A DNA stretch of 17,297 bases from a virus (lineage: Duplodnaviria > Heunggongvirae > Uroviricota > Caudoviricetes). A program made the translations under genes and the position numbers. Shown piece by piece: positions 1,338 to 16,224 of the stretch; within the stretch, counting starts at the first letter, position 1; each line of letters opens with the position of its first letter. The stretch lies in IMG/VR virus record IMGVR_UViG_3300031555_002005; one strand, 5' to 3'. The notes beneath the pieces were generated by a model. It searched no databases. It saw nothing but the letters and a program-made list of their open reading frames with translations, and had not been told where the DNA came from.

Positions 1338-1353
1338 ATTAATTTTGTATTGT
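1338..1353 (-). promoter_or_regulatory. ACARYACAAAATTAAT motif, copy A
   Basis: Minus strand ACAATACAAAATTAAT just after the stop of the 1357-1509 gene. Confidence 0.7.
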
Positions 1354-1356
1354 TTG

Positions 1357-1509
1357 TTATAGTTTATCTACGCCTAGCCACCAACAGATTAATCCAATGC
1401 CAATGTCTTCAATGATCTCAAGCCATAGAGGGATAAAGACTACTGCCCAGGACCAATCTACTGCGCCAATCCATTTGAGCGCAATGAATACTAGTAAGAT
1501 GTCAAGCAT
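1357..1509 (-). CDS. Small membrane protein, Transmembrane Fragile-X-F-like phage family
   Basis: MLDILLVFIALKWIGAVDWSWAVVFIPLWLEIIEDIGIGLICWWLGVDKL (50 aa); LKxxGxxxWSWxxVxxPLW pattern; AAGGAG RBS. Not in the ORF track. Confidence 0.7.
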   Translation of the reverse strand: MLDILLVFIALKWIGAVDWSWAVVFIPLWLEIIEDIGIGLICWWLGVDKL

Positions 1510-1722
1510 TTAATTGTTCTCCTTTACTTCTTTTAAAATGATGTATAGCTCTGGGTCCACAAAAGACATATCTACAATATCATCGACTGATTCAATGACT
1601 TTAAGTTGATAGTCTCTCAGGTCAATAAATATATCATTAATTCGAAGTAGCTTTCTACCGGAAAGTGTGTAAAGCTTGTTGTCACACTTGTAAAGCGTCT
1701 GAGTATCTATAACAATATGCAT
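1510..1722 (-). CDS. Hypothetical protein (70 aa; start corrected to ATG 1722)
   Basis: AAGGAG at 1730-1735 precedes ATG 1722-1720; the ORF-track extension to 1779 runs through the promoter. Confidence 0.75.
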   Translation of the reverse strand: MHIVIDTQTLYKCDNKLYTLSGRKLLRINDIFIDLRDYQLKVIESVDDIVDMSFVDPELYIILKEVKENN

Positions 1723-1738
1723 AGCTGTTCTCCTTAAC

Positions 1739-1754
1739 ATTAATTTTGTACTGT
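1739..1754 (-). promoter_or_regulatory. ACARYACAAAATTAAT motif, copy B
   Basis: ACAGTACAAAATTAAT between the -10 box and the RBS. Confidence 0.7.
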
Positions 1755-1758
1755 AGTT

Positions 1759-1786
1759 ATTATAGCATATATTTTCCATTTGTCAA
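1759..1786 (-). promoter_or_regulatory. Sigma-A/sigma-70 promoter, leftward
   Basis: TTGACA (1786-1781), 16 bp, TATAAT (1764-1759), with TGn extended -10. Confidence 0.85.
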
Positions 1787-1810
1787 GAGGTACCCAAAAT
1801 AAATGATATC

Positions 1811-1945
1811 TTAGTATGTATATTTATATATTAATATAATTATTATTAATAAGTATTATTAGTAAGTATTATTATTAAAAGTATATATTATATTAATTAT
1901 TATATTTATATATTATATATAATTTAAAGTAAATCTATATAATAC
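1811..1945. other. Extremely AT-rich tract, candidate DNA-unwinding element
   Basis: 6 G/C in 120 nt over 1821-1940 (hand count); TAAGTATTATT repeated at 1850 and 1863. Confidence 0.65.
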
Positions 1946-2007
1946 GAGTAATGCGTCAGCATTACGAGTATTTAACTTAGTATTATAAATATATATTAGT
2001 ATTATAT

Positions 2008-2052
2008 AGTTGCAAATTGCAACTGACACTGAGTTGCAAAATGCAATTGACA
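2008..2052. repeat. Two 21-bp iteron-like quasi-palindromic direct repeats
   Basis: AGTTGCAAATTGCAACTGACA (2008-2028) and AGTTGCAAAATGCAATTGACA (2032-2052), 19/21 identical, 24-bp period. Confidence 0.8.
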
Positions 2053-2059
2053 GCGCAAT

Positions 2060-2383
2060 TCACACTAGGTTTAAAAGGTTCTGGACTGCTTCAGGTTTAT
2101 AGGTGAGATAGCGGCGCTGCTTTGAGGCAATGTATTCTTTTTCTTTGGAGAGTAGTCCTGCTGTGATAAGGCGATCAATTGAGCGCTGAATTGTACATGG
2201 GTCTGAGAGGAATAGCTTGCTGAGTTCTTTATTTGACATGTAGAGTTTGCGATCTGCTTCATAGAATGATTTGGCGAGACATAGTATTGCGCCATCTAGG
2301 AGTGTGAGACGGGGACTGGGGAGTAGATTGTTGTGATTGTTTAGAGCATACATTATTGATGAGTGAATTTGAAAGTTGAACAT
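2060..2383 (-). CDS. Winged helix-turn-helix DNA-binding protein (initiator N-terminal-like), 107 aa
   Basis: AGGAGG RBS then ATG 2383; LYMSNKELSKLF..DPCTIQRSIDRLITAGLLSKE pattern resembles wHTH domains of phage replication-initiator N-termini. Confidence 0.7.
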   Translation of the reverse strand: MFNFQIHSSIMYALNNHNNLLPSPRLTLLDGAILCLAKSFYEADRKLYMSNKELSKLFLSDPCTIQRSIDRLITAGLLSKEKEYIASKQRRYLTYKPEAVQNLLNLV

Positions 2384-2399
2384 TGTGCACCTCCTGAGC

Positions 2400-2415
2400 A
2401 TTAATTTTGTGTTGT
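2400..2415 (-). promoter_or_regulatory. ACARYACAAAATTAAT motif, copy C
   Basis: ACAACACAAAATTAAT between the -10 box and the RBS of the wHTH gene. Confidence 0.7.
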
Positions 2416-2416
2416 T

Positions 2417-14296: not shown

Positions 14297-14328
14297 GCTT
14301 AAAACTAAAGATGAAAGGAAAATGACAT

Positions 14329-14520
14329 ATGATATATGCTGCAATATGTGCCACACTTGGCTGGCACACATTCTGTGATGCAACACCAAAAGGAGAGAAA
14401 TTATTAGCTCTTATTGGTATTGTGCTATATGTTGGTGGCATGATATGTGGAGAAATAATTGAAAGTAGATTGAAGAAAAGAATTGAAAATCTTGAAAAAG
14501 AATTAAGAAAGGATGTGTAA
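14329..14520 (+). CDS. Small membrane protein (63 aa)
   Basis: Hydrophobic N-terminal part, basic coiled tail. Confidence 0.7.
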   Translation: MIYAAICATLGWHTFCDATPKGEKLLALIGIVLYVGGMICGEIIESRLKKRIENLEKELRKDV

Positions 14521-14523
14521 TGT

Positions 14524-14736
14524 ATGGCAAAAGAAACACCTTGTGATTATGGCGAATGCCCTTACGATGCGCAGTACAGCGAAGCTTGCAGAGTATACTG
14601 TGGACTTGGCGTAGATGTAGCATGTGACGAAGACGAGTTCGATGATGAAGAGTACATTCCTTCAAGCACATACAGGGACTATGGCCCCAGTAACCCTTGG
14701 GATGCACCTGGGATGTCTGTAAAGGACTTTATTTAA
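14524..14736 (+). CDS. Small acidic Cys-rich protein (70 aa)
   Basis: Five Cys, DEDEFDDEE run, C-terminal PSNPWDAPGMS..DFI motif. Confidence 0.8.
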   Translation: MAKETPCDYGECPYDAQYSEACRVYCGLGVDVACDEDEFDDEEYIPSSTYRDYGPSNPWDAPGMSVKDFI

Positions 14737-14750
14737 GGAGATGAAAACAA

Positions 14751-14990
14751 ATGAAAAAATTTCGTCATTGGTTCTTCAAGTTATTGACTGGTTATGACTT
14801 GATTGAATATGCAGAAGTGCTTGCTCTTTGTAGTAGCTGTATAAAAACTGCAGAAGAGTGTCAAGAAAATAATAGGGCAATCATTAAAGATTCAAAAGAC
14901 ACAATTGAGCTTGCACAAAAGGTAAATGATCAATGCAGAGAATTGTTGGAGCGTTGCAAAGAGGAGAACGAAAATGAAACTTTGGATTGA
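14751..14990 (+). CDS. Hypothetical coiled-coil protein (79 aa)
   Basis: AAGGAG RBS. Confidence 0.75.
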   Translation: MKKFRHWFFKLLTGYDLIEYAEVLALCSSCIKTAEECQENNRAIIKDSKDTIELAQKVNDQCRELLERCKEENENETLD

Positions 14991-15276
14991 TGATGTTCGC
15001 CCCGCACCCTCAAAAGAATACATGAGTTGCAAGAGCGTAAACATGGCAAAAGGAATCATCCAGTATTGGGAAAAGCATTTTAAGCCGCTTGAGGTAATTG
15101 ATATTGACCACGATGCAGGTGACTTTGCAGGCATGGGTGGTGACTATATCAAGCTTCTTGATTGGCTCGAAGAAACTGGGCGCAACTATCCTATTCGGAT
15201 TCATAGTATGAATCCAGTTGGAGTGGCAAACATGAGGGCAATCATTCAACGGAATGGATGGACGGAGGTCAAGTAA
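14974..15276 (+). CDS. Cyclic-phosphate-processing receiver-like domain protein (100 aa)
   Basis: GAGGAG RBS before ATG 14974; LWIDDVRPAP, IDIDHDAG, IRIHSMNPVG match the DDxR / DHD / HSxN pattern of this family. Confidence 0.75.
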   Translation: MKLWIDDVRPAPSKEYMSCKSVNMAKGIIQYWEKHFKPLEVIDIDHDAGDFAGMGGDYIKLLDWLEETGRNYPIRIHSMNPVGVANMRAIIQRNGWTEVK

Positions 15277-15277
15277 T

Positions 15278-15403
15278 ATGTGTGAGTGCTATGGATTGTT
15301 CGACCCTTTTGATGAATTCTGTTATTATTGCCCTTATTCGTTTAGTTGTGAAGATGATACTTTTGGGTATTATTATGATGACTATGATGAATATTGGTTC
15401 TAA
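15278..15403 (+). CDS. Acidic, aromatic, Cys-rich microprotein (41 aa)
   Basis: GGAGG RBS; MCECYGLFDPFDEFCYYCPYSFSCEDDTFGYYYDDYDEYWF; no Lys or Arg. Confidence 0.65.
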   Translation: MCECYGLFDPFDEFCYYCPYSFSCEDDTFGYYYDDYDEYWF

Positions 15404-15429
15404 AATAAATACTTTATGAGGTGATAGAC

Positions 15430-15639
15430 ATGTTGTTGTACAGAATTGAATTTGAAGTAGACGATGGAGCTTATTACAGAAAGGATAACGCTATCGTAAT
15501 GGCTCATAACGCAAAAGAAGCCGTTGAGAAGCTTAAGAAGTTGATTAATTCCATTGATAGCGAAACTTGTGTTTCTGAAATTTATAAGACGGTTATCTTT
15601 GGTGGTGAAGTGTTTACTGGAAATCACGGATGGAAATAA
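15430..15639 (+). CDS. Hypothetical protein (69 aa; start ATG 15430)
   Basis: GAGGTG RBS spacing favours ATG 15430. Confidence 0.75.
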   Translation: MLLYRIEFEVDDGAYYRKDNAIVMAHNAKEAVEKLKKLINSIDSETCVSEIYKTVIFGGEVFTGNHGWK

Positions 15640-15668
15640 AATAGGGGATTTGTATGAGGTAATGTGAC

Positions 15669-15851
15669 ATGAGATGGACAAGTGACAAAAAGAAACCGTA
15701 CGAAAGGCATGTAATCCGCAAGTTTGCATTCTTCCCAATTCGTATAGACAATGAAGTTCGATGGTTAGAATTTGTGAATGTCGAGGCATATTACTGGTAT
15801 GGGGCTTATACCGGAAATAAATACTGGGAGTATGAAAGGTTTGTTGATTAA
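15669..15851 (+). CDS. Hypothetical protein (60 aa)
   Basis: GAGGT RBS; RKFAFFPIRI..RWLE pattern typical of small phage proteins. Confidence 0.75.
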   Translation: MRWTSDKKKPYERHVIRKFAFFPIRIDNEVRWLEFVNVEAYYWYGAYTGNKYWEYERFVD

Positions 15852-15865
15852 GAGAGGTGACTTAA

Positions 15866-16030
15866 ATGCCAGACGCAAAATATGCAAGGGATTTAATTCT
15901 TGCAACAATCATAGGAATGCAAAATGAAATTGGTTATTACGCAAACCTTCGTAAGTATCAAGCATTCCAAGAAGTATATGACAGAATAGTTGAAAAGCAT
16001 GGAGACATGTTTGAAGACTGGAAGGAGTAA
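15866..16030 (+). CDS. Small hypothetical protein (54 aa)
   Basis: GAGGTG RBS; MPDAKYARDLILATIIGMQNEIG...FEDWKE. Not in the ORF track. Confidence 0.7.
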   Translation: MPDAKYARDLILATIIGMQNEIGYYANLRKYQAFQEVYDRIVEKHGDMFEDWKE

Positions 16031-16035
16031 AAGAA

Positions 16036-16224
16036 ATGGAAAACATCAATGAACTTAAAGAACAAGCGTATCAAATCGCAACAGAAACATATAACAACGG
16101 GTATGGTGACTCTTATAGATGGTCTGTTGATGTGCGACTTGATGCAATGAGAACATATGCACAGCTTGTTATAGCAGAAAAAGCAAACAACACAAAATTA
16201 ATGGACACAAACGCAAACATATAA
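16036..16224 (+). CDS. Hypothetical protein (62 aa)
   Basis: AAGGAG RBS; contains motif copy E. Confidence 0.65.
   Translation: MENINELKEQAYQIATETYNNGYGDSYRWSVDVRLDAMRTYAQLVIAEKANNTKLMDTNANI
16187..16202 (+). promoter_or_regulatory. ACARYACAAAATTAAT motif, copy E
   Basis: 16186-16203 is an 18-nt exact match to the reverse complement of 2399-2416; followed by TGGACA-17-TATAAT (16202-16230). Confidence 0.6.

Follow-up and report, generated by a model that had tools for sequence, protein, structure and literature searches.

We describe a 16-nt word, ACARYACAAAATTAAT, that recurs in one orientation relative to transcription in a 17,297-nt stretch of DNA from a tailed phage (Caudoviricetes; IMG/VR record IMGVR_UViG_3300031555_002005), which we call the window, and in the genomes of its relatives. 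Our reading is that the word, in its extended form t-a-ACARYACAAAATTAAT-G, is probably the site at which a master repressor encoded by the phage itself, of the MrpR/YopR/SroF family, docks on the DNA. Most likely we are dealing with a variant of the known SPBRE/MrpR silencing system (SPBRE, SPbeta repeated element) rather than with a signal of a new type. The observations that carry this reading are the array itself and its orientation, the geometries in which copies meet sigma-A promoters, a likeness to the SPBRE of phage SPbeta, a repressor homologue encoded in the same genomes, and a change of the word that matches the lineage of the phage. That the MrpR-like protein binds the word, and that the copies without a promoter block elongation, we infer from the sequences.

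A pattern scan of both strands of the window finds exactly five matches, at 1338-1353, 1739-1754 and 2400-2415 on the minus strand, and at 4760-4775 and 16187-16202 on the plus strand. These are the copies, with the same coordinates and strands, that a first-pass annotation made from the letters alone had listed, and none of 200 dinucleotide-preserving shuffles of the window produced a match. When 3 mismatches are allowed, only three more weak matches appear, at 2583 (-), 7040 (+) and 11260 (-). As the annotation had also stated, orientation follows transcription, in all five copies of the window and, across genomes, in 145 of 156.

The word is found far beyond the window. A pattern scan of IMG/VR gives more than 119 loci with the exact pattern, many of them multi-copy. 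Each of four genomes that are complete or nearly so (158-170 kb; direct terminal repeats in three, the fourth, G004, linear) holds 31-42 copies at one mismatch or less, and the reversed control gives 0. For the nearest relatives of the window, G006, which has 69% identity to it in the peptidase gene, and G007, the numbers are 18 and 15. Copy statistics here and below refer to n = 156 copies, those of five genomes plus the window. By this count 93% of the copies run with the local gene and 5 run against it, and 140 (90%) are intergenic. Such a scan of the genome and its relatives had been suggested by the first-pass annotation, and the bias in position and orientation, together with the empty control, supports its claim of a phage-specific regulon element: the word is conserved across whole genomes and among relatives, and runs with transcription.

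The conserved span is longer than the 16-mer, with t at -2, a at -1 and a G at +17, the last in 108 copies (69%). The gene caller that we used is crude, and many start distances of more than 40 nt are miscalled starts, so we recounted the adjacency to Shine-Dalgarno (SD) sequences without gene calls: 99 of the 156 copies have an SD-like word and a start codon within 15 nt downstream. About 35 of the ~215 genes carry the word. The genomes that share it have only 41-87 proteins in common, at 46-66% amino-acid identity; nevertheless, the word is invariant among them. A literature search for the string ACAAAATTAAT returned unrelated papers only, and no description of the word.

Promoters, gaps between genes, and RNA

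With respect to sigma-A promoters, 22 of the 156 copies start exactly 1 nt past a -10 box, and 18 overlap the -35 box and the spacer in the arrangement TTG-ACA...AATTAATG-TGn-TATAAT. With some 22 further copies within 2-23 nt, promoter overlap amounts to about 40-50% of the copies; seen from the other side, ~60% of the near-consensus sigma-A promoters carry the word. In the class that follows the -10 after 1 nt, the expected sigma-A start is at about position 6 of the motif, yet the 5' half is conserved, and the 3' half is almost never seen without the 5' half, this class included. Because the 5' half is kept although it is not expected to be transcribed, the whole word is conserved as DNA.

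The same 22 copies, with their fully conserved 5' half, speak against the idea that the word acts in RNA, as a nut/boxA-like antitermination signal, an mRNA cleavage site or the target of an RNA-binding regulator. The idea has its attractions. In a genome this densely packed, the word occupies the only stretches that are not translated, nearly always sense and intergenic, with an SD directly following in the 99 copies counted above; copies lie just past early promoters and between stop and terminator, like lambda nutL and nutR; the motif is unpaired in all predicted folds; and the word heads tRNA arrays, so it is more than a translation signal. But the 18 copies in the promoter spacer are upstream of the start site, perfect inverted copies occur in promoters, the homologous SPBRE is bound as DNA, and the genomes encode no complementary partner RNA. 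No Rfam family matches the word. We regard an RNA signal as quite improbable. A related idea, in which variation at R4/Y5 would reflect G-U pairing with an antisense RNA, was dropped, the four complete genomes having no complementary word besides the copies themselves.

As many as 77 of the 156 copies have no recognisable promoter, even under relaxed rules. These copies occupy the space from a stop codon, which they often overlap, to the next SD, and 38 of them lie at most 7 nt from the upstream stop. In 10 copies, at most 16 nt from a terminator-like hairpin, the order is stop, motif, hairpin, and this order recurs at equivalent sites of G003, G004, G005 and the window. Where a terminator-like hairpin precedes the copy, a sigma-A promoter stands between hairpin and motif in 9 of 10 cases, so that the word is not seen as the sole start signal of a transcription unit. 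Still other copies stand at the heads of tRNA arrays that have neither an SD nor a sigma-A promoter. A role as translation enhancer was dropped, given copies that head tRNA arrays and precede terminators; since these arrays lack an SD, a purely translational role is ruled out.

As to the tRNA genes themselves, Aragorn calls a 'tRNA-Pyl' at 123431-123505 of G002, in a 13-gene tRNA array, which may be an amber-suppressor tRNA. In G001, Rfam finds three tandem group I introns at 127264-128416 (L126 7264-8416, minus strand); they neighbour the structural gene with the highest conservation and are a short way upstream of a promoter that carries the motif.

A recombinase-fold repressor as candidate reader

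The first-pass annotation had discounted a repressor operator on the grounds that the word is not a palindrome. This argument fails: MrpR/YopR/SroF attaches as a monomer to a long box that is asymmetric, and the phages with the motif have genes for homologues of this protein. MrpR, which is the same protein as YopR and SroF, is the master repressor of the Bacillus phages SPbeta and phi3T, with a tyrosine-recombinase fold and no catalytic activity (PMC10516654; bioRxiv 10.1101/2025.11.27.690993). It binds the 15-bp SPBRE at about ten promoters, as found by chromatin affinity precipitation sequencing (ChAP-seq), electrophoretic mobility shift assays and lacZ fusions (PMC10516654), and SroF clamps a 26-bp asymmetric box as a monomer, reading 24 of the 26 bp (bioRxiv 10.1101/2025.11.27.690993). 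A repressor of this type, binding as a monomer, explains the asymmetry of the word. The readers that the annotation had put forward, a winged helix-turn-helix protein (2060-2383) and a NUMOD1-like protein (9909-10478), gained no support.

In G001, the gene at 20515-21402 matches the Pfam family MrpR_N_CB (PF22822) with an E-value of 2.4e-12, above the cut-off, and also MrpR_C_cat (PF22823). Of 10 genomes with the motif, 9 have an MrpR-family gene: G001-G004, G006 (the nearest relative of the window) and G009-G012, the last being four out of five genomes with the variant of the word described below. The MrpR-like proteins align over their full length with SPbeta YopR, at 21-24% identity. Judged by eye in a four-sequence alignment, they lack the box-I Arg and the HxxR, as YopR does: box-I GLR is replaced by SGK or SGP and the HxxR region by TMKN, where YopR has SGLA and TPNT.

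One could also take the recombinase fold of the presumed reader literally, and see in the word a recombination or cassette boundary, like integron attC or T4-type PeSL, at which the recombinase-like protein would shuffle units made of motif, SD and gene. Copies do flank single small genes in one orientation, and gene content differs greatly among the genomes that share the word, as the low number and identity of their common proteins indicate. But in the alignment with YopR the MrpR-like proteins lack the box-I Arg and the HxxR, like the catalytically dead MrpR/SroF, the word overlaps core promoter elements in a fixed register, and only some 35 genes of the ~215 carry it. We consider such a role very improbable indeed.

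The repressor reading, on the other hand, is helped by copies that run against the rule of orientation. In G001, G002 and G012 an inverted copy lies in the sigma-A promoter spacer of the MrpR-like gene itself, and in G012 this copy is the variant of its own lineage; it is possible that the gene is autoregulated through it. A perfect inverted copy also stands between the -10 and the SD of the promoter of the G001 integrase gene. The integration module to which this gene belongs (G001 70104-71871; L123 10104-11871) consists of an Xis-like gene, a repeat-rich gap of ~380 bp, which may be attP, and the tyrosine integrase, and it suggests that the phages with direct terminal repeats are temperate.

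The known site of MrpR offers a direct comparison. In SPBc2 the SPBRE, ACAAATACAAAWAATATG, has ~13 copies, all in sense, versus 0-1 in the control, and ACA(A)ATACAAA is common to the SPBRE and the word of the window. The two use the same two sigma-A promoter registers. In one of them, TAGACA-17-TATAAT, the -35 shares the ACA start of the SPBRE (yonP, yorE, yorZ); in the other, the SPBRE is just past the -10 and directly ahead of the SD (yonX, yopV). A position weight matrix search for homologues of the motif in SPbeta and in the clade with 41-43% polymerase identity (see below) found none, and the motif-negative clades yielded nothing like the SPBRE. We also note an SPBRE-like copy with 2 mismatches at 61382-61399 (minus strand) of SPBc2, in the last codons of yonO and just ahead of a terminator; it resembles the class with the order stop, motif, terminator, and it is not among the published ChAP-seq peaks.

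The word changes with the lineage of the phage. A profile search with the phage polymerase retrieved 80 loci, which we grouped by identity. Loci with a polymerase at least 59% identical to that of G002 have 2-7 copies of the word per ~20 kb. In a sister lineage (polymerase 55-57%), the corresponding sites hold the variant ACARTACAAAATTATW(G), of which G012 has at least 26 copies; the variant ends in ...TTATW, versus TTAAT in the word. The 51 loci of a clade at 41-43% have no copies of the word. A concerted change at all sites suggests a reader that is encoded by the phage, and not by the host. A member of the 41-43% clade, G015, has a repeated element of its own, ACAGATTATATAATTATCTTGA(C), with five copies only (at 43392, 44954, 115896, 119127 and 119173). 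It lies directly upstream of, and runs into, a TTGAC -35-like hexamer, two copies flank the MrpR-like gene, and it is probably that clade's own operator.

In the mechanism that we propose, a catalytically dead repressor of the tyrosine-recombinase fold would bind the long asymmetric box as a monomer. Copies over sigma-A promoters would be operators that keep the early lytic promoters shut in the lysogen, by lying over the transcription start in the layout -10, 1 nt, motif, or over the -35 box and the spacer in the layout TTG, motif, N, TGnTATAAT. Sense copies without a promoter would act as stoperators, where the bound repressor would halt a stray elongating polymerase in one direction.

A repressor site explains the conservation at the DNA level, the two registers, the asymmetry, the likeness to the SPBRE, the lineage variant and the inverted copies in promoters. 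Several observations weigh against it. Alone, it does not explain the half of the copies that are promoter-less and strictly sense, for which the stoperators of mycobacteriophages would be a precedent by analogy; all ten MrpR ChAP-seq peaks of SPbeta are at promoters (PMC10516654), and the stoperator role is thus borrowed from an unrelated repressor family. A simple roadblock model does not predict the order of stop, motif and terminator. The resemblance to the SPBRE joins two A/T-rich words and needs indels, and the 3' halves differ. The 41-43% clade has MrpR-like genes but only low-copy elements, and the inverted copy at the promoter of the MrpR-like gene is absent in G003, G004 and G006. 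The window is a 17-kb fragment without a repressor gene, and in G008 (IMGVR 3300045988_123494, 148.6 kb), which has the variant word, neither Pfam nor protein searches find an MrpR-like gene. G008 may be a repressor-less virulent derivative, or an incomplete contig.

The phage's own RNA polymerase

All motif-bearing genomes encode a homologue of the SPbeta RNA polymerase YonO, a protein of ~940 amino acids with the catalytic sequence NGFDFDGD. It matches Pfam RdRP (E 3e-14, above the cut-off), tblastn aligns it with SPbeta yonO at E 1e-22, and it shares 36-37% identity with proteins of Clostridium phage c-st and of Enterocloster phages. The gene order is as in SPbeta: polymerase, a long gene-free leader, YonK-like, HU-like, phosphoesterase, terminase and portal genes. 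YonO transcribes the late operon of SPbeta from one start site, its promoter is undefined, and it has no flap domain and pauses little (PMC5467207). The polymerase gene is split by inserts of ~1 kb in G001 (146676-150499, L127), G003 and G005; the G001 insert splits the catalytic sequence between NGAD and FDGD and carries its own motif, SD and open reading frame (ORF), and the break in G003 and G005 is at residue 562/563.

Could the word be the promoter of this two-barrel, single-chain polymerase, which would start transcription at the G that follows the motif? Copies beside sigma-A promoters would then make dual promoters, and copies ahead of terminators would fire a polymerase that is insensitive to hairpins; since YonO lacks the flap and pauses little, the order of motif and then terminator is not absurd for a YonO promoter. 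The polymerase gene is found in every genome that has the word. A length of 16-19 nt, the strict sense orientation, the frequent G at +17 (69%) and the lineage variant are all like the promoters of single-chain phage polymerases. One copy stands at the head of the leader that precedes the YonK-like, HU-like, terminase and portal genes, the place of the YonO start site in SPbeta; copies head the tRNA arrays that have no sigma-A promoter; and the YonO promoter sequence being undefined leaves room for the word.

Other facts fit this poorly. The word resembles the SPBRE, which is the site of MrpR, and the YonO start site of SPbeta is not among the MrpR ChAP-seq peaks (PMC10516654). The word is absent from the YonO-encoding phages PMBT24, CB473P1 and c-st, as well as from the 51 loci of the 41-43% clade. 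Units that follow a terminator open with a sigma-A promoter and not with the motif alone, in the 9 of 10 cases given above. Polymerases that are only ~40-46% identical (G001 vs G002) would need to read an identical 16-mer, many mRNAs would start right at the SD, and inverted copies inside the sigma-A promoters of the repressor and integrase genes suit an operator better. Published primers bracket the SPbeta YonO start to ~11770-11960 of L159, where we see no convincing motif-like word, and Rfam finds nothing relevant in the long leaders (G001 143.4-145.9 kb; the yonN-yonK gap of SPbeta). We take a YonO-type promoter to be unlikely. Regarding other factors that could read a promoter, no match to sigma factors (PF04542) was found in G001-G005, and none to T7-type polymerases (PF00940) either, the latter a weak negative since the PF00940 control was also without a match. 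The three options that the first-pass annotation had offered, a promoter for a phage polymerase or sigma factor, a nut/boxA-like site and the target of an RNA-binding protein, stand as possible rivals, and they fit worse than a repressor site.

Repressor and polymerase may also be two sides of one arrangement. In a wider proposal, which we find rather doubtful, the whole array would be a one-way roadblock system, with a monomeric recombinase-fold repressor at 30-40 sense sites, going beyond operators at promoters. It would be needed because a YonO-type polymerase, lacking the flap domain, hardly responds to hairpin terminators; in the lysogen, stray polymerases of host or phage could be kept from the lytic genes by protein roadblocks alone, among them the ones ahead of terminators. 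In a bolder version, one and the same word would be the repressor site and the entry site of the phage polymerase, making up a physical switch between two transcription machines.

The copies of the window, and known systems

On inspection, the five copies of the window have the contexts that the first-pass annotation described, between promoter and ribosome-binding site, after a stop codon, or within a gene just before a promoter. The copy at 1739-1754 (-), ACAGTACAAAATTAAT, lies between a consensus sigma-A promoter and an SD, and we place it in the operator class, over the transcription start region. It is 4 nt downstream of the promoter TTGACA-16-TGcTATAAT (1759-1786, minus strand; 12 of 12 matches, with a TG extension) and 4 nt upstream of AAGGAG, and the gene that follows (1510-1722, minus strand) has its ATG at 1722. 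The copy at 2400-2415 (-), ACAACACAAAATTAAT, begins 1 nt past the -10 of TTGACA-17-TATACT (2417-2445, minus strand; 11 of 12 matches), a layout that is the most frequent promoter arrangement in this phage family. It is 5 nt ahead of the SD (GGAGG inside CAGGAGG) of the HTH_36 gene at 2060-2383 (-), whose ATG is at 2383. The copy at 16187-16202 (+), again ACAACACAAAATTAAT, is in the last codons of ORF 16036-16224 and abuts the -35 of the next promoter, a sigma-A-like TGGACA-17-TATAAT (16202-16230, plus strand; 11 of 12 matches) that begins at the motif's last T and precedes the gene at 16240-16626.

The two other copies follow stop codons. The one at 1338-1353 (-), ACAATACAAAATTAAT, is 3 nt past the stop of ORF 1357-1509 and has no promoter, which puts it in the stoperator-like class; it precedes a spacer of 114 nt and then the gene at 1035-1223. 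In the fold of 1225-1358 (-) the copy is unpaired, and the structure of the spacer is not significant (z -1.1). The copy at 4760-4775 (+), ACAGTACAAAATTAAT, is 5 nt past the stop of a lysine-rich gene (4080-4754), and directly 3' of it is a terminator-like hairpin (4774-4831, plus strand) with the core stem GGGCTAG/CTAGCCC, followed by TATTATTAT. Folding gives this hairpin, 16 nt on from the copy, -31.3 kcal/mol and z -5.3, and the order stop, motif, hairpin recurs behind the matching gene in G003 (12415) and G005 (17928). A degenerate copy with 3 mismatches, ACTATACAAAACCAAT, at 2583-2598 (-) in a gene-free divergent region, is of doubtful function.

That divergent region extends over 1.5 kb (2460-3950) without a gene or an Rfam match. 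Between 2500 and 3000 its plus strand is nearly free of C, with a GC skew of 0.7-0.9, and what looks like a terminator, aacctcaacgggttttttgtg near 3310-3330, hints at a non-coding RNA in the region. The window also has a tract of TA repeats at 1800-2000 (12.5% GC), perhaps an origin or a site of bent DNA. Tracts like it are found ahead of the gene for the YonO-type polymerase in Enterocloster phage PMBT24, and immediately behind copies of the motif in L178, L182 and L184. Rfam and tRNA scans of the window gave no matches, and megablast against cultured phages gave none for the window.

If the word is read by an MrpR-like protein, it would indicate that a switch of the MrpR/SroF type runs a large family of uncultured 150-170-kb phages of the animal gut. 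To our knowledge, this repressor has so far been described only for SPbeta-type phages of Bacillus, with about ten promoter sites. What would be new with respect to the published SPBRE/MrpR system is that there are 3-4 times more sites, half of them apparently used like stoperators, in uncultured gut phages, and the expansion into promoter-less gaps would be a convergence on the stoperator design of mycobacteriophages. The word and its variants (TTAAT vs TTATW) are candidate markers of immunity groups, and could serve as a natural pair of sites for studying how a recombinase fold reads DNA. The word also flags early promoters and gene boundaries in genomes in which most genes are without an assigned function. 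Its overlap with the YonO polymerase system is of interest because the promoter of that polymerase is undefined.

Among known systems, the SPBRE of SPbeta is the one of which the array would be the counterpart. In both, an asymmetric box of 15-26 bp is repeated over a genome of more than 125 kb, in sense and directly 5' of the SD, and the genome encodes the homologous recombinase-fold repressor together with a YonO polymerase, a YonK-like protein, an HU-like protein and a DnaE-type polymerase. SPbeta, in contrast, has ~10-13 copies where the genomes here have 31-42 each, about half of which are promoter-less (in gaps within operons, ahead of terminators and at the start of tRNA arrays). The two words differ in their 3' half, and the repressor proteins are only 21-24% identical to YopR.

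Compared with promoters of single-chain polymerases of the T7/T3/SP6 type and with the undefined one of YonO, the word has a similar length, a sense-only orientation, a form that changes with the lineage and a purine behind it; the polymerase gene is in the phage genome, and one copy of the word is at the position of the SPbeta YonO start region. The word differs in that further phages with YonO lack it, it overlaps promoters of the host type in registers that suit an operator, and it rarely stands without a promoter after a terminator (1 of 10 cases). The operators of the C1 repressor of phage P1 are ~17 bp long and asymmetric, with many sites in a large temperate genome and a monomeric repressor. 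There, protein and sequence are unrelated to those described here, the sites are fewer, and all are at promoters.

The stoperators of the cluster A mycobacteriophages L5 and Bxb1 are 13-bp asymmetric sites, with 24-34 per genome, intergenic and in one orientation with respect to transcription; their consensus is specific to the lineage (immunity groups), they are thought to block elongation, and D29 keeps them without an active repressor (PMC3029335). The word of the window shares with them the asymmetry, the short intergenic gaps, the single orientation, the dependence of the consensus on lineage, and the proposed silencing by a block to elongation. D29 also parallels G008, with its variant word and no detectable MrpR-like gene. 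Stoperators, however, are G+C-rich sites of 13 bp in phages of actinobacterial hosts, and their readers (L5 gp71, Bxb1 gp69) are helix-turn-helix repressors and not proteins of the recombinase fold. The two systems would be alike in their mode of action, and they are not homologous.

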